A stretch of DNA of 54,273 nt, from IMG/VR virus record IMGVR_UViG_3300017613_001373; one strand, written 5' to 3'. Made by a program: the position numbers and the translations under genes. This document shows positions 2,844-41,542 of this stretch, one piece after another. This stretch comes from an uncultured virus (IMG/VR IMGVR_UViG_3300017613_001373) (taxonomy: Duplodnaviria > Heunggongvirae > Uroviricota > Caudoviricetes). How positions within the stretch are numbered: position 1 is the stretch's first letter; every line of letters starts with the position of its first letter. Under the pieces are notes generated by a model. The model was given only the letters and a program-made list of their open reading frames with translations, made no database searches and was not told the DNA's origin.

Positions 2844-3101
2844 ATGACATTATATAGAACAAGTTTTGAAAGAACTAATTTTTCATTCACGCCACCATTG
2901 GAACAAAAAGCAGATGTGGTATTTGAATTTGATGGGGATATAGATGATTTAGAATTACATATTGATGCGGCATATGAAGCATGTTATGAACAGAACCCCC
3001 AATGGCGTGATCCTTCATCACCAATTAAAGGGTTTGGAGGATGGTCGTCGGTGTTATGGGATCATAATATTGTTGAAGCCGAATTGAGGATATTGAAGTG
3101 A
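2844..3101 (+). CDS. Hypothetical acidic protein
   Basis: AAGGA RBS; ORF in gene run. Confidence 0.7.
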   Translation: MTLYRTSFERTNFSFTPPLEQKADVVFEFDGDIDDLELHIDAAYEACYEQNPQWRDPSSPIKGFGGWSSVLWDHNIVEAELRILK

Positions 3102-3280
3102 CTGGAGTTGTTGGATGGGAGGATAGAACAATTGCGAAGATGCGTGATGAGTATAGTTTCAAGGATCACCATATTTGTGATATATTCCCATACTGGTTGA
3201 GATAACAGTACTTTTAACCTATTGTAAAAAATTACAATTTTGTTACACTATCCTTATTGAAGTCAAAGAAAGGAGATATT

Positions 3281-3538
3281 ATGAAAGAATGGCAAATTAA
3301 ACTTATGATAAAGGGATTGTTCGCAACACTGGTTGATCATGTTGACTATGCTATTGTTTATGACTATGATCCTAATACTATAATTACAGGACATGGTGTG
3401 AATACCAATACCGCATTTCAGCTAGTCGTTGATGCTGACGAAGATGATGGTGTGTATCTGAATGTTCTGGATATTGATAATGATTATGCTATCATATATC
3501 AAGGTGTTTTCACAGATGTGAGGAAATTTTTGAATTAA
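3281..3538 (+). CDS. Hypothetical acidic protein
   Basis: AAGGAG RBS before ATG 3281; class A promoter. Confidence 0.7.
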   Translation: MKEWQIKLMIKGLFATLVDHVDYAIVYDYDPNTIITGHGVNTNTAFQLVVDADEDDGVYLNVLDIDNDYAIIYQGVFTDVRKFLN

Positions 3539-3556
3539 TTTAAGGAGAAAAGACAA

Positions 3557-3736
3557 ATGACTTTTGAAGAATGGATGGTAGCGGTGGACGAGGTGGTTGG
3601 TAATATTACATTTGGTTTAAGTGTTCATGATTTACCTGATATGGCATTTCGTGACTTATATAATGATGGTTCAACGGCACAAGACGCGGCAGAAGAAGCA
3701 CTGGGAAATGCAGATTTCCCAATGGAGATGTTATAA
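3557..3736 (+). CDS. Small acidic phage protein (59 aa)
   Basis: TAAGGAG RBS; MTFEEWMVAVDEVVGNITFGLSVHDLPDMAFRDLYNDGSTAQDAAEEAL...; below ORF-track cutoff. Confidence 0.75.
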   Translation: MTFEEWMVAVDEVVGNITFGLSVHDLPDMAFRDLYNDGSTAQDAAEEALGNADFPMEML

Positions 3737-3924
3737 TGACTATTTTAATATTTGTAAGAATTGTTGTAATCCCATTGTTTTACTGTTTCGTGGGTAAAAC
3801 ATGGTATGATTCAAACAATCGGAATAAACATGTTCGTAATATTATTGCGACGATTGGATTTATCATCGTGTTTGATGTTGTGGGTATTTTGATAGATGAA
3901 CTTATACGGGAAGGATTACTATGA
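3736..3924 (+). CDS. Small two-TM membrane protein
   Basis: Two hydrophobic segments; GGAG RBS; start overlaps upstream stop. Confidence 0.65.
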   Translation: MTILIFVRIVVIPLFYCFVGKTWYDSNNRNKHVRNIIATIGFIIVFDVVGILIDELIREGLL

Positions 3925-4151
3925 GTAAAGTGCAAAAAGATCCGAAATTCAAGGTGGAAGTTATTGAAACCCATGAAGGATATTTTGTCTATAAGCGTGA
4001 TGGACAACGTGATAGATGGATTTGTTACAACACTGATGTATTACCAGATACATTGGAGGTTGTTGTGGGCAAATCTTATACGGGACAAAATATAATAACT
4101 ACCGAAAATGGCACGTTTGTTTCGTGGAAACGGGAATTTAAGGCGAGGTAA
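3921..4151 (+). CDS. Hypothetical protein
   Basis: ATGA overlap with upstream gene. Confidence 0.65.
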   Translation: MSKVQKDPKFKVEVIETHEGYFVYKRDGQRDRWICYNTDVLPDTLEVVVGKSYTGQNIITTENGTFVSWKREFKAR

Positions 4152-4231
4152 TAAAGTACAATAGTACTATTGCAATAACCGATAATATATGGGATACTAT
4201 AAAAGTATTGAAAACTGATAGGAGAGACAAA

Positions 4232-4690
4232 ATGAAAAACGATGGAATTAAAGATGTGATTTTTGAACTTAGCTGTACAAGCTGTACAGCAGAATTGGTA
4301 ATGAATGATGAGGATATTTTGGGAGCTATTGCACAACTCCAATGTGAATATTGTAAATCAGCGTTTGTATATATATTACCTACACCAGAATCCGATACTG
4401 TTTTTAATCAAGAAGGACAAACTGTTAACGGTATTCAAGTTAATGGTAATGGTGGCATCTATGCAAATACCATCACAGCGAAGAATGTTGTACAAGGTTC
4501 ACAAGTTAATGGGATAGTACATGTAGACGGTGATTTTGTTGGTGGTGATAAAATTATTGGGGATAAAGTTGGTGGCGAAAGGTTAAGCGGTGATAAGATT
4601 GTTATCGGAAATATTTCTGGTCAAAAACGCGGTATTGCAATTGGGCGCGGTGCAACAAGTGTTGTTCAAATTAATTACAATACGGATTAA
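4232..4690 (+). CDS. Zinc-ribbon protein with C-terminal G/N/Q/V/I-rich amyloid-signalling-like motifs
   Basis: CTSC...CEYC followed by FNQEGQTVNGIQVN, GGIYANTITAKNVVQGSQV, GDFVGGDKIIGDKVGG..GDKI, IGNISGQKRGIAIGRGATS; AGGAG RBS and own class A promoter. Confidence 0.75.
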   Translation: MKNDGIKDVIFELSCTSCTAELVMNDEDILGAIAQLQCEYCKSAFVYILPTPESDTVFNQEGQTVNGIQVNGNGGIYANTITAKNVVQGSQVNGIVHVDGDFVGGDKIIGDKVGGERLSGDKIVIGNISGQKRGIAIGRGATSVVQINYNTD

Positions 4691-4785
4691 ATCATGAACG
4701 TGAAAAAATCAACAGGAAATTTGTTTGGTATTGTTTTCGCCATTATGTGTATTTTGGTTGTGATATTGGGAAATTAATAAAATAA

Positions 4786-4849
4786 AAAAACTATTTAATA
4801 AATAATATTTTTACAATCATTATTATTTTTTATTTATTAAATAGTTTTT
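4786..4849. repeat. 20-bp perfect inverted repeat in a very AT-rich intergenic tract
   Basis: AAAAACTATTTAATAAATAA (4786-4805) / TTATTTATTAAATAGTTTTT (4830-4849). Confidence 0.8.
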
Positions 4850-5311
4850 GCTTTATGCACACGAGTACACGCTTGATTCAAGTAACATTTTTCAGACGTT
4901 ATTTAATGGGTTTGATTAAATATTTAATTAAATGTTAATTGTTCTCAGAAATAATTTAATAGTGTTTATTTAATTTAAGAATTAATTTAATCGGATTAAT
5001 AATAGAAAGAAATAAATTTAATGAGGATGTAATGGGTTTAATTGAAAAAATGTATAATGAGGCAAGTGCTAATTGGTTGGAGTTGGATTATATAATTGTT
5101 AGTAAAAATTTTTGGGATAGTTGGTTAAGGTATTTCTTCGACGCATTTATTATAGATGATCAAATGATTTTTATCACAAAGACAGATTGATAATATTACT
5201 GTTCACTTAATGGAAGGAAATATTGTAATTGGTGCGGCTAGTGTTAAATGTAAAATATCAGATGAAGTAGATAGTTATAATATTATATTACGGAGTGAGA
5301 GGTAGGTATTA

Positions 5312-5812
5312 ATGGAAAAAGATCAAACATATGGTTATCAATATACGATACCTAATAATCATTTCAGGAATGATTTAGAATATAAAAAATATTATATTGA
5401 GGCAGAAGAAAAACGAGCAAGAACAATTATTGGTGAGCAATTATTTGATATGGTGAAGACTACAGAAGATGGTGTTTGTTTTTGGTTGAAACGAGAACAA
5501 AGGGATGATTATAGTCCGATGTATGATTATAGTCCGATGTATGATGACATTTCATTCCCTGTATATAATCCATATGATAGTATAGAACCAAATCAAAGCG
5601 TGACCTATCGCGTTAAATGCGAGGTTGTGCAATATCATAATCCAATTAAATATAGACTTGAACCAAGCTATTATCCAACCGCATTACCTAAAGGTGAAAT
5701 CAAATATACAAAAGCTACTAGTATGATTAAAGAATTATTTAATAGAACAATTAAACCGTTTACGAAAAGTTTTAATGATGAATTAATTATACAGGCGAGA
5801 AAAGGGTTATAA
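5312..5812 (+). CDS. Hypothetical protein with an internal 18-bp tandem duplication (DYSPMY x2)
   Basis: 166-aa ORF; GAGG upstream. Confidence 0.7.
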   Translation: MEKDQTYGYQYTIPNNHFRNDLEYKKYYIEAEEKRARTIIGEQLFDMVKTTEDGVCFWLKREQRDDYSPMYDYSPMYDDISFPVYNPYDSIEPNQSVTYRVKCEVVQYHNPIKYRLEPSYYPTALPKGEIKYTKATSMIKELFNRTIKPFTKSFNDELIIQARKGL

Positions 5813-6070
5813 TGATAAATCAAAATGTATTAAAAGACATTGGGTTTGAACAATCTTATTGAAACATTATTTGGCAAGGTTGAAAACATGTCGCATTACT
5901 TGTTAAGTGGTGTGATTGACAATGGTTCTCGTTGGGCTGAAATTCATCGCTTACAACGATTTATGAGCAAACATGGTCGTATGACAGACGAACTACAATA
6001 AAACAGGAGAAATGTATGGAAGAAGATGAAGAAGTGATTGTTTTTGATTGGGTTGATGAAGGAGATGAAT

Positions 6071-6988
6071 ATGAGTTATGATAGTTTTTATTTAGTGCCA
6101 AGAATGAGTATTGTTGAAAGTAGATCGCATTGTGATACAAGTGTGATGTTAGGTGGACATACGTTTTCATTGCCGATCATGCCAAGTAACATGTCCAGCG
6201 TCGTAGATTTTAAGTTATGTGCTGAGTTGGCACGTAATAATTATTTTTATGTAATGCACCGATTTTGTGATTACAGCGATATTTATGATTTCGTTGTTGA
6301 TATGGATAATGATGGATTGATTAGTTCTATTAGTGTCGGTGTTAAACAACAGGATTATGATCTTGTTGACAGATTGATTAATGCAAAATTGGACTATATC
6401 ACACTGGACATCGCGCATGTGGACGCAATTCTTGGTAGGGATATGATTAAACATATTAAAAAAACATTACCCAATACTTTTTTAATTGCGGGTAATGTTG
6501 GTAGTGTCGATGGTGCAAAACGTGTTGAATCTTGGGGTGCAGATGCTTTGAAGGTGGGGATTGGTAACGGTTCAAAATGTTTGACAACTCCAAATACTGC
6601 TTTCCATTGTCACCCCGCTGTTTTGTTGCAGGAATTACAAGGTGAGGTTAGCATACCAATTATTGCTGATGGTTCAATTTATGATATTGGTGATATTTGT
6701 AAAACCCTTGTTTTAGGTGCTGATATGTGTATGATTGGTGGGATGTTATCAGGATTTGATGAAAGTCCCGGTGAAACATTTGAAGTTGATGGAGAACTAT
6801 GTAAAATTTATGCTGGTTCTACTGCTAACAATACAACTCATATCGAAGGTGCGAGTAGTAATGTACCATTAAAAGGGTCGCTGTGGAATTATTTGGATAT
6901 TATTGGTCAAAATCTTCGTAGTTCAATCTCTTATGCTGGTGGGAATGATTTACGAGCTTTTAATAAGGTAGAGATCAAGTTTCATTAA
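6071..6988 (+). CDS. guaC: GMP reductase (IMPDH/GMPR family)
   Basis: PIMPSNMSSVVD, YFYVMHRF, ISVGVK, YITLDIAH, IAGNV, KVGIGNGSKCLT (catalytic Cys), PIIADG, IEG, LRSSISYAGG; no CBS domains; GGAG RBS before 6071. Confidence 0.9.
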   Translation: MSYDSFYLVPRMSIVESRSHCDTSVMLGGHTFSLPIMPSNMSSVVDFKLCAELARNNYFYVMHRFCDYSDIYDFVVDMDNDGLISSISVGVKQQDYDLVDRLINAKLDYITLDIAHVDAILGRDMIKHIKKTLPNTFLIAGNVGSVDGAKRVESWGADALKVGIGNGSKCLTTPNTAFHCHPAVLLQELQGEVSIPIIADGSIYDIGDICKTLVLGADMCMIGGMLSGFDESPGETFEVDGELCKIYAGSTANNTTHIEGASSNVPLKGSLWNYLDIIGQNLRSSISYAGGNDLRAFNKVEIKFH

Positions 6989-7025
6989 GTTTGACACATT
7001 TTTGATAAAACGATATACTATGTTT

Positions 7026-7112
7026 GATATTACTCTCCGTAATATTGTTCTATATAAAACGCCCCACCATTGTTATATTCATACTTAAACAAGGCTGGTG
7101 GGGTGTTTTACT
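7026..7112 (+). ncRNA. Candidate ~85-nt small RNA with an anti-SD loop and an antisense loop
   Basis: TTGACA(6991)-N17-TATACT(7014); hairpin ATATTAC-TCTCC-GTAATAT; long hairpin 7055-7110 ending in a T-rich run; no ORF. Confidence 0.65.
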
Positions 7113-7145
7113 TCCTCTGTAGAACAAATGTGTTATAATATAGGT

Positions 7146-7403
7146 ATGAATATAACAAATAAAGCCGATTTTTATATAGATGAAGAAACTTCCTTAATAT
7201 ATCTCAACAAGAATACAATTGTGGAACCATTTGTGAATATGAAGTGGAATGGTGCAAATAAACAATATTATACGTCGTTGGGGTATAGTTTTACACAAAT
7301 GCGTGATAGTTTCATGACTGCCATTCAAGATTTATCACATGGTTGTGGTGTAAGGGTTGGTGCAATATGTCCAATATGTAAAGCCCAACGTAATGTGGCC
7401 TGA
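7146..7403 (+). CDS. Hypothetical protein, leaderless, C-terminal H/C zinc site
   Basis: TATAAT(7134)-N6-ATG(7146); HGC...CPIC. Confidence 0.65.
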   Translation: MNITNKADFYIDEETSLIYLNKNTIVEPFVNMKWNGANKQYYTSLGYSFTQMRDSFMTAIQDLSHGCGVRVGAICPICKAQRNVA

Positions 7404-7517
7404 AATTAACAACATCCCAATACTTGATTGGACATACTTTAAGAAAAGTACTAGGACATGGCATTACTTGTGGAATGATGAATTGTGGGTAGATGAAACA
7501 GAAAATGAGGTGAAACT

Positions 7518-7973
7518 ATGAAAATTGTATCCAGTGTAATAGTGACTGAGAATGGGATTAAATATTACTTGATTGTTGAAAAAAACCGTGCAGGGTATTT
7601 TGTATGTGTTCGTAATGCTAATGGCTTTTCCCCGATGTTTGTGTTACCATCTACCCGTGATACTATATATAATAGTGTAGAAGAAGCACTTGAATCGTCA
7701 AGACATTACCTCACCAATAAGTATAATCAGATTGTTATGCCGTTTGAAAGGCGATATGGACAGGTGTTTCGTCCTGAATCCCGCAAGGGTTTTCGTATCG
7801 CACGAGATTTAAATGAACCATCACATCGAGATGTGGTTGTTTTCATTCTAAACGATTATGACAATGAGGATGATTACTATTGTTTTTATGCCAATGATTC
7901 TGATTGGGAAGAATTGTATGATGAAGAGTTATATTTACAACTGCCAGTAATTAGTAAAAAAGTAGGAGAATGA
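7518..7973 (+). CDS. Hypothetical protein
   Basis: GAGGTG RBS. Confidence 0.7.
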   Translation: MKIVSSVIVTENGIKYYLIVEKNRAGYFVCVRNANGFSPMFVLPSTRDTIYNSVEEALESSRHYLTNKYNQIVMPFERRYGQVFRPESRKGFRIARDLNEPSHRDVVVFILNDYDNEDDYYCFYANDSDWEELYDEELYLQLPVISKKVGE

Positions 7974-8251
7974 ATATGAAAGAATATACAGCAACATTTT
8001 CAAACGGTAAAGACGTATTCTTTATTGTGGCCGAACGATATTTTGCTCAGACAAAAGAAGTAGCGGAAGAGATTGGGAAAATCACAGAAGATCTTGAAGG
8101 GCAAATTCAGAATTTTAAATATATCGAAGTTATTGAATTTACAGATCGTCAGATTTATCATCACGTCGGTCATCTTGGATCGATCACGCTTGGTTTGTTA
8201 TCGGGTGAAATGTTCGATGCCGCTGAAATTAGAAGTAAGCGTGGTCGATAA
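7970..8251 (+). CDS. Hypothetical protein
   Basis: AGGAG RBS; overlaps upstream stop. Confidence 0.7.
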   Translation: MNMKEYTATFSNGKDVFFIVAERYFAQTKEVAEEIGKITEDLEGQIQNFKYIEVIEFTDRQIYHHVGHLGSITLGLLSGEMFDAAEIRSKRGR

Positions 8252-8563
8252 ATGGTACTAAAACAAGCACGACAACATGCTATGGTTGCCGCATTTACAC
8301 AAGTGATTGAAGACACTGATGTTCAATTGGAATATGACGGTGATAAAACGTGGTTTAGCAATGATTATTCAGTTCAAGACATATTATCAATGATGTCAGA
8401 ATATCTTAAAAAATATGATCGTCATATGAGTATTGTAGAAATTACTCTTGCTTTCGATATTGAGATTGATTACGATGAAGCAAAAGACGCTCTGGAAGCA
8501 CAAGGTAGCGTACACGAAGCGATTGTAGAAATTTGCAAACTTCGTAATATTGGGGGTGTATGA
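8252..8563 (+). CDS. Hypothetical acidic protein
   Basis: Abuts upstream gene. Confidence 0.65.
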   Translation: MVLKQARQHAMVAAFTQVIEDTDVQLEYDGDKTWFSNDYSVQDILSMMSEYLKKYDRHMSIVEITLAFDIEIDYDEAKDALEAQGSVHEAIVEICKLRNIGGV

Positions 8564-8859
8564 TGTATAAAATCAGTATTATTGAGAATCCGACAATTCC
8601 GATTCTTGTTCCAACGAAGTTTTCAGGAACAAGTAGACCAGTTCTCCAATATCGTGTAAAAGCCCGTGTTGGCGATGTTGACGCATTATTACAGCGTATT
8701 GATGATGCACGAGATGAATGTGACATGTGTTATTTTGAATACAGAGATATTCATGGCGAGGAACAATCGTATCCAATTGTTTATGCTATGACAAAGGTTG
8801 AACAATTCGATGATGGTACTGACATGAATGTACTATATCTGGACTTTATCGTATTTTAA
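8560..8859 (+). CDS. Hypothetical protein
   Basis: ATGA overlap. Confidence 0.65.
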   Translation: MMYKISIIENPTIPILVPTKFSGTSRPVLQYRVKARVGDVDALLQRIDDARDECDMCYFEYRDIHGEEQSYPIVYAMTKVEQFDDGTDMNVLYLDFIVF

Positions 8860-9089
8860 TGTTGACAATAAAAGAGATTATAAAATATAATAATAATCCC
8901 TCTGAATGGTCTGGAATTCTTGTAAATAATGAATTGTTCTATATTGTTTATAAATGGGGATTGCTAAGTATTACTATCGGTTCATCCACAGCTAGTGTGG
9001 ATATTGGTGATCCATATGATAACAAGATGAGTACGGAAACCTTAAAAGAATTGACAAAAGTGATATTTAATTGGGATATGATAAAATGA
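8859..9089 (+). CDS. Hypothetical protein
   Basis: TAATG overlap. Confidence 0.65.
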   Translation: MLTIKEIIKYNNNPSEWSGILVNNELFYIVYKWGLLSITIGSSTASVDIGDPYDNKMSTETLKELTKVIFNWDMIK

Positions 9090-14268: not shown

Positions 14269-15591
14269 ATGTTTATACCAAACGAAATTAAAGAGTTGGG
14301 CAGGTTGGTTGATGATAAAGGTGGACGCTTGTTTGTTGTTGGTGGTGCGATTCGTGACCACGTTATGGGGATTGTACCAGAAGACTTCGACCTGTTGATG
14401 ACGGGATTGGATAAAGATGTTGCGATCCGTTTAATGAATAACCCTAAAAAAGTTATTGGTAACGCACCTGTTTTTAAATGGCGAGGGATCGATGTAGCAC
14501 TTGGACGACGTGAGATAAATACAGGTGATGGGAAACAAGGATTTGATTTCATCGCTGATCCAAACATTACAATCTTTGAAGACCTGATTCGACGTGACTT
14601 TACAGTAAATGCAATGGCTATAGATGTCGTAACGGGTGAACTTATTGATCCATTTGATGGTCTGTCTGATATTCGTGATAGAATTCTTCGGCCTGTCTCT
14701 CCTGCATTTGTAGAAAGTGATGAGAGAGTGTTGCGTGGAGCTAGTTTTGCCGCACGATTGGAAGGGTTTGTAATGAGTGACAGTTTTTGGGATTTTGCTG
14801 AACAGATGTCACCAGACACCATTGCCCCTGAACAAGTTTTTCGGCATTTTGAAAAAGGCATGAAACTCGGTGTAAAACCGTCAAGATGGATTGAAGTGCT
14901 TGATGAGGCAGGATGGCTTGAACAACTTTTTCCCGAACTTCATGCATTGAAATTCTGTGAGCAAGATTCTGAATGGCATCCTGAGATTTGGGCATTGGAA
15001 CATACCATGCACGTTTTGGATGAATCAGAAGGTATTTTGATGAGACTTGCCGCAATCTGTCACGATTTGGGAAAAATTCATTGTACTGTGATTGTTGATG
15101 GTAAGATAACGAGTCCAAGACATGAAAAACATATTGCACCAACTATTGAATTTCTGGATCATGTGGGGTGTTTCGAGACTGACATTAGAGAAACCGTTAT
15201 TAGTTTGGTTAGAGAGCATATGATTCACTCTAATTTCAAGAATAGTCAGAAACCGTCCAAACGCGCTGTACGGCGATTGTCTCAGCGATTGCGTCCTGCC
15301 ACCATTGAACAGCTATCCGAGTTGGTTAGAGCGGATGTAAGCGGTAGACCACCATTACCTAAACACATGCCTGAAAGCATGATTGACATCTTGGAGATTG
15401 CCAAAAGAGAAGACGTGACAATTAAACCATTCGAGCCGATGATGCAAGGCCGACATCTCATCAAACTGGGAATGAAACCGTCAAAACAATTTGGAATTTG
15501 GTTGAAACAAGCAGAGGAAGCAGAGATAGATGGTGTTTTTGACAATATCGACGATGGGATGGATTTTTTGAGAAGTTTAATTTTTGACTAG
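14269..15591 (+). CDS. cca: Class II tRNA nucleotidyltransferase (CCA-adding/poly(A) polymerase family) with HD domain
   Basis: FVVGGAIRD...EDFDL, DLIRRDFTVNAMA, IDPFDG..DI, ERVLRG..FAAR, Q..EWHPE...EHT, ICHDLGK. Confidence 0.9.
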   Translation: MFIPNEIKELGRLVDDKGGRLFVVGGAIRDHVMGIVPEDFDLLMTGLDKDVAIRLMNNPKKVIGNAPVFKWRGIDVALGRREINTGDGKQGFDFIADPNITIFEDLIRRDFTVNAMAIDVVTGELIDPFDGLSDIRDRILRPVSPAFVESDERVLRGASFAARLEGFVMSDSFWDFAEQMSPDTIAPEQVFRHFEKGMKLGVKPSRWIEVLDEAGWLEQLFPELHALKFCEQDSEWHPEIWALEHTMHVLDESEGILMRLAAICHDLGKIHCTVIVDGKITSPRHEKHIAPTIEFLDHVGCFETDIRETVISLVREHMIHSNFKNSQKPSKRAVRRLSQRLRPATIEQLSELVRADVSGRPPLPKHMPESMIDILEIAKREDVTIKPFEPMMQGRHLIKLGMKPSKQFGIWLKQAEEAEIDGVFDNIDDGMDFLRSLIFD

Positions 15592-16545: not shown

Positions 16546-17811
16546 ATGACAACAAATCAAGCAATTGTGTGTCGAATCAAAACACGACCACATCCAAAAG
16601 CAGATCGACTACAATTAGGTACAGCAATGGGGTTTCAGGTTGTATTAGGATTAGATGTTGAAGACGGGACATTGGGGGTATTTTTTGACAGCAATCTGCG
16701 TCTCTCTGATGAATTCTGTATCACGAATGACTTATTTCCACGATATGATGAAGATGGTAAGAAAATTGGGGGTGGTTTTTTCAACCCTAAGAACGCTCGG
16801 GTAAAAGCACAAACTTTTCGTGGTGAAAAATCATTTGGATATTGGACTTCGTTGGAGTCTTTAACTTTTGCTGGAGATGTGTCGAAACTACGCGAAGGTG
16901 ATCAATTTGATACTTTTAATGATATTAAAATTTGTGAAAAATACATTGTCCCAGTTAAATCAAATACACAAGGTAAGAAACAGCATAGCAATCGTATTCG
17001 TGGTACTAAAATGATCCCTCGTCATTATGATACTGAACAGTATAAATACAAAAAAGATCGTATCGAAGTGGGCGATTTAATTACTATCACTTTAAAAATG
17101 CATGGTACATCGGGACGTTATGGGTTAGTTATTTTACCGCCGCAAGAACCAACTAACATTTTCTTAAAATTGTGGCATAAATTATATCCACAAGAAGATG
17201 TTTATGGATACATTCATGGGACACGAAATGTTTTGTTAGATGACAATGAGGGTGGTTATTACGGAGACAATGGATTTCGTGACAATGTTGTACGTGATGT
17301 GATTCTCCATCAAGGTGAAACAATTTATTTTGAAATTGTGGGTTGGGTCAATGACGAAAAACCGATTATGAATTCTGTCCCGACCAAAACTGTTGCTGAT
17401 AAGAGTTTTAAGAAACACTATGGTGATACTATGACATTTAAGTATGGTTGCCCTGCGGGGACACAAGCTATGTATGTGTATCGTATTACTCGCAGTACTC
17501 ATGATGGTACAGTTACAGAACTATCGTGGAATCAGGTTGTAAATCGCTGTAATGAACTTGGTATCAATCATGTTCCAGAACTTCGTCAATATGTCTTTGA
17601 TGGTGATTTTGAATCATTAGAGATGTATTTAGATGACGTGCATGAGGGGGAAGACATGATTGATCCTTCACATATCAAAGAAGGTGTTGTGGTTCGGGTT
17701 GATACAAAACAGGGTGAACATTATGCTTTGAAATACAAATCATATCTTTTCTACGTTCTTGAGGGAATTGTCAAAGATCAAGGACTTGTGGATATGGAAG
17801 ACATTGCGTAG
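16546..17811 (+). CDS. RNA ligase (DRB0094/Rnl5-like) with N-terminal OB domain
   Basis: HPKADRLQL N-domain; motif I LKMHGTS; FEIVG; EGVVVR; LKYKS. Confidence 0.85.
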   Translation: MTTNQAIVCRIKTRPHPKADRLQLGTAMGFQVVLGLDVEDGTLGVFFDSNLRLSDEFCITNDLFPRYDEDGKKIGGGFFNPKNARVKAQTFRGEKSFGYWTSLESLTFAGDVSKLREGDQFDTFNDIKICEKYIVPVKSNTQGKKQHSNRIRGTKMIPRHYDTEQYKYKKDRIEVGDLITITLKMHGTSGRYGLVILPPQEPTNIFLKLWHKLYPQEDVYGYIHGTRNVLLDDNEGGYYGDNGFRDNVVRDVILHQGETIYFEIVGWVNDEKPIMNSVPTKTVADKSFKKHYGDTMTFKYGCPAGTQAMYVYRITRSTHDGTVTELSWNQVVNRCNELGINHVPELRQYVFDGDFESLEMYLDDVHEGEDMIDPSHIKEGVVVRVDTKQGEHYALKYKSYLFYVLEGIVKDQGLVDMEDIA

Positions 17812-41036: not shown

Positions 41037-41443
41037 GCACTTAACGTAGATTAGAAATAATTGAACAACGAGGCGACTTTGCAAAAAACCTAACCCAACT
41101 AGGAATCATGTATTCTTAACTGTCCAAAGTCAGTCAAAATGGGGATGGGGAATAAACAATCGAACACGAGTGACAGAGCGTATGCCGCACTTCTCAATCA
41201 GGATGTTCAGGGGATGAGCGTAACCCCTATTAGTACTAATGTACCATTGTCTAATAAAAAGAGTGATGATATACTATTTTTATTGAACGGGACAATAAAA
41301 ACTCAGTGATAGAGTTTTTAACAGAATTTTATCACTGGGCTTTTATTCACTAAAGAAGTTGTGGCGGCGATTCGAGCGCAACTTGACCTAAAAAAGCATG
41401 ACGGTAAGGGACACTCAGCCAAGACGCTAAACGGTTTGGATAG

Positions 41444-41518
41444 TCAGATATAGTTCAATTGGCAGAACATGGTGGGTACGTCCTATCAAGGTTGTTGGTT
41501 CAAATCCTTCTATCTGAT
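41444..41518 (+). ncRNA. Non-canonical tRNA-like RNA (7-bp anticodon stem, 5-nt loop TACGT)
   Basis: Acceptor TCAGATA/TATCTGA+T; D-arm GTTC-AATTGGCA-GAAC; TGGTGGG-TACGT-CCTATCA; T-arm GTTGG-TTCAAAT-CCTTC; CCA not encoded. Confidence 0.75.
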
Positions 41519-41542
41519 AAGTAAAGCTATTAAATCGAATCT

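Follow-up and report, generated by a model that had tools for sequence, protein, structure and literature searches.

A phage protein with a putative zinc ribbon and a sequence module of Chloroflexota STAND-linked proteins, a possible decoy of NLR-like signalling

The window, that is, the whole stretch of DNA analysed here (54,273 nt of an uncultured Caudoviricetes virus, IMG/VR record IMGVR_UViG_3300017613_001373), belongs to a large phage that encodes a clamp loader, a sliding-clamp-like processivity factor, a repair exonuclease, a CCA-adding enzyme, an RNA ligase and a helicase. One of its small genes, at 4232-4690, encodes a protein (P0001) in which a putative zinc ribbon is followed by a long glycine-rich module. 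The features of this locus are:

4220..4225, plus strand: Shine-Dalgarno-like AGGAGA, 6 nt ahead of the P0001 start codon, read directly
4232..4690, plus strand: P0001 ORF, stop codon TAA included, 152 aa, based on the reading frame and the ortholog P0002
4274..4354, plus strand: putative zinc ribbon, C15xxC18 ... C38xxC41, based on a sub-threshold Pfam match and on cysteines conserved in P0002
4403..4444, plus strand: module part 1, FNQEGQTVNGIQVN, residues 58-71, aligning with (T)FNQEGQTVxGTQVN of the caspase proteins P0013 and P0014
4445..4528, plus strand: module part 2, a variable G/N-rich spacer, residues 72-99, aligning loosely with a variable G/N-rich host stretch
4529..4600, plus strand: module part 3, GD/GDK repeats with a five-residue period, residues 100-123, based on residues invariant in a 16-sequence alignment
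4601..4666, plus strand: module part 4, the core VIGNISGQKRGIAIGRGATSVV, residues 124-145, based on residues invariant in the same alignment
4694..4777, plus strand: 27-aa hydrophobic ORF MNVKKSTGNLFGIVFAIMCILVVILGN plus stop, one codon past the P0001 stop and in the same frame
4786..4849, no strand assigned: perfect 20-nt AT-only inverted repeat, just past the 27-aa ORF

The ATG at 4232 opens a frame of 152 codons that ends with a TAA at 4688-4690, as can be read directly. The protein contains the CxxC...CEYC signature noticed in the initial annotation, its cysteines being C15-x2-C18 and C38-E-Y-C41 in a CxxC-x19-CxxC pattern, and the zinc-ribbon profile match is sub-threshold (Pfam Zn_ribbon_4, E 0.085, 13.2 bits, under the 30.3-bit cut-off). 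The gene had also been credited with its own promoter and ribosome-binding site. The latter is present (AGGAGA, 4220-4225), but a scan of 3800-5100 with the sigma-70 consensus, which may not be that of the host, finds no promoter upstream of the gene, the single site in this interval being at 4975-5003. The GC content of the ORF (36.2%, GC3 21%) is near that of the window (34.5%), a phage-like composition indicating that the gene is not a fresh import.

Searches of Pfam, PHROG, NCBIfam and PADLOC detect no domain in P0001 besides the weak zinc ribbon, which agrees with its earlier description as an effector-less protein, and there is no Pfam match to an EAD domain even at E<=10. An ortholog, P0002 (115 aa, 54% identity in alignment), keeps four of the four cysteines and the entire core. 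It is the sole other protein found that has a zinc ribbon and the module and no sensor, adaptor or effector domain.

The P0001 gene is about the eighth ORF in a long plus-strand block that begins near 2200, and its neighbours are small ORFs without family assignments, a position suggestive of an early or accessory gene. The 27-aa hydrophobic ORF downstream is in frame with it (4694-4232 = 462 = 3 x 154), and a clear ribosome-binding site is not seen for this ORF; read-through of the P0001 TAA would add a membrane-helix-like tail to the zinc-ribbon and module protein. The inverted repeat at 4786-4849 is a possible transcript end, and it goes uncalled by a terminator scan that requires G-C pairs. 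Elsewhere in the window are an IMPDH/GMP-reductase-like dehydrogenase (6038-6988, phrog_9582), a tRNA nucleotidyltransferase (14269-15591), the RNA ligase (16546-17811) and one tRNA-Arg(ACG) (41443-41519), a set that hints at tRNA repair or at functions against anticodon nucleases. Neither megablast of 3000-9000 nor tblastn of P0001 brought up a close relative among GenBank phages, and scans of IMG/VR gave no match. The best phage matches of the window's exonuclease are below 35% identity and belong to phages of several unrelated host groups.

Residues 55-152 consist to 62% of G, N, Q, V and I, and to 6% of K, P and L. The four G/N/Q/V/I-rich segments listed in the initial annotation are present as quoted (F58-N71, G74-V92, G100-I123 and I125-V145). 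Across 16 aligned sequences, 20 positions of the module are invariant, and P0001 keeps 20 of the 20. These comprise the G and D residues of the GD/GDK repeats together with one lysine (G100, D101, G105, D106, G110, D111, K112, G120 and D121), and the GNISG and AIGRGA stretches of the core (G126, N127, I128, S129, G130, A136, I137, G138, R139, G140 and A141).

The segments had been read as several host motif types that the phage joined together, a proposal which the bacterial homologues contradict. Host proteins such as P0013, P0014, P0025, P0035 and P0036 each contain all four segments, arranged as in P0001. In a pairwise comparison, P0013 is 51% identical to phage residues 49-143 (E 1e-18), with the four segments in the same order, while the caspase proteins P0012-P0014 and P0016 are 47-52% identical to residues 55-152 over 88-95% of the query. 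As aligned, residues 55-152 are one colinear module and not a phage-made string of motifs; because the four segments are colinear in single host proteins, the composite would pre-exist in the host and have been taken as one piece.

A phmmer search of 1.84 billion representatives with residues 55-152 returns 52 proteins at E<=1e-3, self counted, and two at E<=1e-10, namely P0001 itself and P0002. When the hits are re-scanned with an HMM of the module, the core GDK..GNISG..AIGRGA is found to be kept in 43 of the 51 non-self proteins, a likeness beyond chance or low complexity. Just eight of the 51 are low-complexity, repeat-only matches (extensin-, HC2-, Calx-beta- or autotransporter-type proteins), and the hits are therefore not confined to structural beta-helix or adhesin proteins. 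In a search among longer proteins with the same residues, five of 176 candidates reach E<=0.01. Peptidase_C14 (Pfam) is present in four of them, the other being a fragment from a contig of 923 nt. A search among proteins of near length returns P0002 and nine proteins that have in common only the GDK..GNISG..AIGRGA stretch, five of which start with EAD7 and one with a zinc ribbon.

The domain content of these relatives is that of conflict systems. A Pfam tally covering 49 of the exhaustive-search hits gives EAD7 in six, EAD1 in three (one of them also scoring EAD7) and EAD9 in one. Effector domains are Peptidase_C14 (four proteins), CHAT (one) and TIR_2 (one). TCAD2, the C-terminal helical domain, is found in four, Zn_Ribbon_1 in two and iSTAND in one, and a single hit is a TPR protein of 1919 aa. 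A further 23 have no family, and six carry unrelated extensin, HC2, Calx-beta, autotransporter or NHL assignments. The usual build is a caspase, CHAT, TIR, EAD or zinc-ribbon domain, or nothing, followed by the module and then by a helical domain of ~90 aa. The initial annotation had placed such segments at the ends of Chloroflexota NACHT, TIR and CHAT proteins. Their occurrence in Chloroflexota caspase, CHAT, TIR_2 and EAD proteins linked to STAND/NLR sensors holds, but not their terminal position, as the module is internal in effector and adaptor proteins. Bacterial proteins composed of a zinc ribbon, the module and the helical domain exist as well (P0011 and P0057); BLASTP finds no zinc-ribbon homology between P0001 and either of them. 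Three other bacterial proteins (P0030, P0031 and P0049; 82-121 aa) are almost nothing but module, and may be contig-end gene fragments or natural host tag-only regulators.

A pattern scan for the module in one genome per species, covering 185,579 prokaryote species, gave 81 matches, from which 19 genome loci were confirmed by tblastn. All 19 are from Chloroflexota: Ardenticatenaceae, Promineifilaceae, Caldilineaceae, Litorilinea, Anaerolineae, Ca. Leptofilum and unclassified Chloroflexia. The pattern was derived from a Chloroflexota-dominated alignment and may miss divergent versions elsewhere. A scan of JGI metagenomes with an alignment of the phage type found one bacterial caspase-module gene only (L034, 57% GC).

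Sub-parts of the module also occur on STAND/NLR-like sensors. When the module HMM was run on all ORFs of the fetched loci, it matched 13 NTPase proteins ahead of their NTPase domain (E 1.4e-11 to 2.9e-4), the next hits having E>1. By Pfam, nine of these are nSTAND1 proteins, two NB-ARC and one NACHT, while the thirteenth (in locus L010) has DUF7779 and a P-loop read by eye. Their C-terminal parts contain WD40, TPR, pentapeptide, FGE-sulfatase or beta-propeller domains. The tags lie within the first 10-60 residues and fall into two classes. The core class is found in L004 (two genes), L008, L011, L012, L016, L019 and L030, and the GD/GDK-repeat class in L006, L010, L014, L029 and L032. The repeats stand alone on the NB-ARC-TPR protein of L006, the P-loop protein of L010, the nSTAND1-WD40 protein of L014 and the NACHT protein of L032, and the core stands alone on nSTAND1 proteins and one NB-ARC protein. 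The tag of the nSTAND1-WD40 NTPase of L011 (residues 10-35, ..GDQIQVGHIQGSKAIAIGRGATAIYQG..) is 59% identical over 27 aa to phage residues 120-146, with which the L016 tag is 57% identical over 23 aa. The expectation that the segments would also be found separately is thus borne out for two sub-parts, on the N-terminal stretches of NB-ARC, NACHT and nSTAND1 proteins. It fails for the FNQEGQTV part, which was found on no NTPase in the five genomes searched and is present only in caspase and EAD7 module proteins.

Tagged sensors and module proteins are often neighbours. In seven loci (L004, L006, L008, L010, L011, L012 and L014), a tagged sensor gene and a module gene share a strand and are no more than ~200 nt apart. 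As judged from gene order, this tag-on-sensor layout is that of amyloid or prion-like NLR signalling. In two further loci, L003 and L005, the module is found inside all-in-one STAND-TPR proteins, beside a caspase or trypsin domain. The first of these is an NB-ARC-TPR-caspase-module protein (L003 2792-10357, a frame of 2522 aa) and the second a STAND-EAD1-TPR-module-trypsin protein (L005 4892-10864, 1991 aa); in both, the module forms the joint between sensor and protease. L004 6791-18711 is a dense Chloroflexota conflict island. It runs from a tagged NB-ARC-pentapeptide sensor through a caspase-module-helical protein, a 621-aa protein with two cores and the same helical end, a metallophosphatase and an EAD7-module protein to a tagged nSTAND1-WD40 sensor, and a C39-like peptidase with LysM is encoded upstream. 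A defence role of these host systems is inferred from their domain content.

An AlphaFold2 model of the EAD7 protein P0007, built from a 30-sequence alignment, shows the module as low-confidence coil (pLDDT<50, residues 91-142), flanked by a confident EAD7 domain and a confident C-terminal helical domain. The modelled coil would fit a tag that stays unfolded until assembly. Using VIA-align wide, the EAD7 part of the model resembles CARD and death folds (Z 6-7), while its C-terminal helical domain shows an unspecific likeness (Z ~7) to harmonin-homology and other bundles; Foldseek finds nothing in the PDB at E<=0.001 for the P0007 model. For P0001 itself, a single-sequence AlphaFold2 model has a mean pLDDT of 33.7 and is unusable. 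A low-confidence Atlas model (pLDDT 0.52) is nearest to beta-solenoid clusters such as bactofilin, DUF2807 and DUF4097, at TM 0.5-0.6 and all 'under the bar', and P0001 has no match to a beta-helix family in Pfam. The beta-solenoid is also the fold of HET-s-type signalling amyloids. Such likeness therefore suits signalling amyloids and structural helices alike, and does not discriminate between the two readings.

The closest known parallel is with bacterial amyloid signalling sequences (BASS). In Dyrka et al. (2020, bioRxiv 10.1101/2020.01.06.895854), which covers BASS1-10, these are defined as motifs common to a partner protein and the N-terminus of the product of an adjacent NB-ARC/NACHT gene, and are described as abundant in Q, N, G, V and I but with few K, P and L residues. 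The available part of Ibarlosa et al. (2024, bioRxiv 10.1101/2024.11.07.622273) reports BASS11 Bab/Agp, and amyloid signalling demonstrated in one E. coli antiphage system. The host module shares with BASS a short G/N/Q/V/I-rich motif on an NB-ARC/NACHT-type N-terminus and on a partner from an adjacent, colinear gene, multicellular or filamentous bacterial hosts, and the occurrence of TIR and CHAT partners. The adjacency by which BASS are defined is found at the seven loci where a tagged NTPase gene and a same-strand module gene lie within ~200 nt of each other. The composition of phage residues 55-152 fits the BASS description in part, the GD/GDK part being charged, and in these charge-rich repeats the module is unlike published BASS motifs. 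It also differs in size, as it is composite and ~90 aa long in contrast to a BASS motif of ~25 aa. In addition, the host module is internal and followed by a TCAD2-like helical domain of ~90 aa, whereas BASS are situated at the C-terminal end of effectors. Its partners are not of the Bell-domain kind either, and Pfam gives no match to a Bell family.

The host relatives also share their domain repertoire with EAD-coupled NTPase conflict systems, which in the available parts of Kaur, Burroughs, Iyer and Aravind (2020, PMC7159879; 2021, PMC8195603) comprises EAD7, EAD1, EAD9, caspase, TIR, trypsin, FGE-sulfatase (FGS) and STAND NTPases. P0001 differs from these systems in having no EAD domain. 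The glycine-rich module is not described in the available text of either paper, and the word 'amyloid' occurs 0 times in that of PMC7159879. A third parallel is provided by the protease-activated effectors EACC1 and Pepco (Evans et al. 2025, bioRxiv 10.1101/2025.11.14.688446), where STAND-based defence, in a Chloroflexota species among others, links a caspase-like protease to a small effector that is helical or pore-forming. In contrast, the C-terminal domain of the host module proteins has no EACC1 match in NCBIfam or Pfam. Neither EACC1 nor Pepco families match P0001, P0007, P0012 or P0056, and P0012 scores 88 bits with the NCBIfam model 'caspase, EACC1-associated type', against a cut-off of 140 bits.

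Animal viruses offer a precedent for the phage side. Herpesviruses block RHIM signalling with RHIM proteins of their own (M45 and ICP6). In tag-only decoys of the vRHIM and vPOP type, and putatively in P0001, a virus carries a homotypic signalling tag of its host without sensor or effector domains. P0001 differs in that it comes from a phage with a bacterial host and belongs to another tag family.

Together, these comparisons suggest that P0001 is a tag-only mimic or decoy of a host NLR signalling module, a reading that is tentatively preferred and given slightly less than an even chance. A jamming role is proposed because P0001 has the tag but no killing domain; lacking the latter, it most likely jams NLR-like signalling of the host. 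In the host, oligomerised STAND sensors would bring their N-terminal tags together, and the gathered tags would recruit, or act as template for, the copy of the module that caspase, TIR or adaptor proteins carry. Assembly would be homotypic, whether by cross-beta templating or another form of stacking, comparable to signalling through amyloids (BASS, HET-s, RHIM) or death folds. P0001, whose gene lies in a block of small, early-looking genes, would present the complete module, with a zinc ribbon where host proteins have a sensor or effector domain. By entering assemblies of host tags, it would cap or sequester these tags and pass no signal on, so that abortive-infection signalling is blocked. 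Since P0001 has both the GDK-repeat and the GNISG..AIGRGA tags, it could engage sensors of more than one class, and both NB-ARC-TPR-type and nSTAND1-WD40-type sensors might be open to its interference. A more far-reaching version of the same idea, that the module is a new composite prion-like tag through which at least two STAND sensor classes template caspase, TIR and death-like adaptor proteins, and that P0001 is a cap which poisons this templating in several sensor classes together, is possible but doubtful.

Several observations count against a decoy. The phage module is matched in only five of 401 sampled Chloroflexota genomes at E<=1e-3 (a tally that includes one unpublished genome), so a cognate system would be rare. 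The GC content of the window is 34.5%, compared with 45-62% in the Chloroflexota loci. The internal position of the host module in effectors and adaptors is not the C-terminal one of BASS pairs. Lastly, many module proteins carry EAD, a known adaptor, and recruitment might therefore run via EAD, with the module as a mere linker.

The main rival to the decoy reading is that P0001 acts as a protease pseudo-substrate. Here, the core would be the cut site of a caspase-like protease that frees the C-terminal helical domain, and P0001 would compete as a substrate of this protease or inhibit it, much like baculovirus p35. Arg and Lys are the residues after which bacterial orthocaspases cleave, and the core has an invariant Arg139 and the GDK repeats a Lys. 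The module directly follows Peptidase_C14 in P0012-14, P0016 and four further hits, follows CHAT in one hit and precedes Trypsin_2 in L005, and it is predicted to be an exposed, disordered linker. According to Evans et al. (2025, bioRxiv 10.1101/2025.11.14.688446), proteolysis at specific sites activates EACC1 and other caspase-linked effectors of bacteria, one of them from a Chloroflexota species. However, cutting a sensor motif that lies in the first 10-60 residues would free almost nothing, and the genes examined in the module-sensor pairs of L006 and L011 yielded no protease domain. More than 40 residues are conserved, G, N, I, S and A positions among them, far beyond a typical protease site, and the C-terminal domain to be released is the one without an EACC1 match in NCBIfam and Pfam. 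A pseudo-substrate role is consequently considered improbable.

The original proposal of a multi-pathway decoy, assembled by the phage itself from separate host amyloid motifs at the ends of different proteins, draws some support from the separate occurrence of GDK repeats and core on different sensor classes. It is nevertheless quite unlikely, as its claim of origin is contradicted by the shared segment order of P0013, P0014, P0025, P0035 and P0036, and as the FNQEGQTV part is on no sensor in the five genomes. The 'multi-pathway' idea could survive in changed form, through the two tag classes that P0001 appears to combine.

There is also a slim chance that P0001 switches host proteins on, triggering caspase or TIR proteins for take-over or for the timing of lysis, or that it belongs to a phage-borne exclusion system, perhaps together with the in-frame 27-aa hydrophobic ORF. 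A zinc ribbon that oligomerises or binds nucleic acid could let a tag-only protein nucleate assembly as well as cap it, bacterial proteins that pair a zinc ribbon with the module and the helical domain exist (P0011 and P0057), and the hydrophobic ORF begins one codon past the P0001 stop. Yet P0001 has neither an effector nor a sensor domain, its zinc ribbon shows no BLASTP homology to those of P0011 and P0057, and early suicide of the host would harm the phage. Activation or hijack, like a purely structural role, is less likely than the pseudo-substrate reading. That P0001 has no link to immunity, its C-terminal region forming a beta-helix or polymer with a structural role or resembling the module through chance low complexity, as the beta-solenoid neighbours of the Atlas model and the eight repeat-only hits might suggest, is very improbable given the specific core in 43 of 51 hits, the conflict-system nature of the named domains, the lack of a Pfam beta-helix match and the surroundings of the gene, which consist of small early-type ORFs and replication genes instead of structural ones.

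In fungi and animals, NLR-like sensors are proven to signal through amyloids or tags. In the literature searched, neither a phage counter-measure against such signalling nor a phage-encoded copy of an NLR tag was found, nor any relevant mention of the motif strings of the module. The homology and gene-layout evidence is strong. It points to an undescribed tag family through which filamentous Chloroflexota may couple caspase and TIR proteins to their STAND sensors. These bacteria are hard to study, and L004 and L011 would supply bench-ready gene pairs. As a near-complete, effector-less copy of the tag found on both sensor and effector, P0001 is a directly testable candidate for counter-defence. 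If P0001 does cap the templating of several sensor classes, it would be to phages what the RHIM inhibitors are to herpesviruses and the pyrin-only inhibitors to poxviruses.
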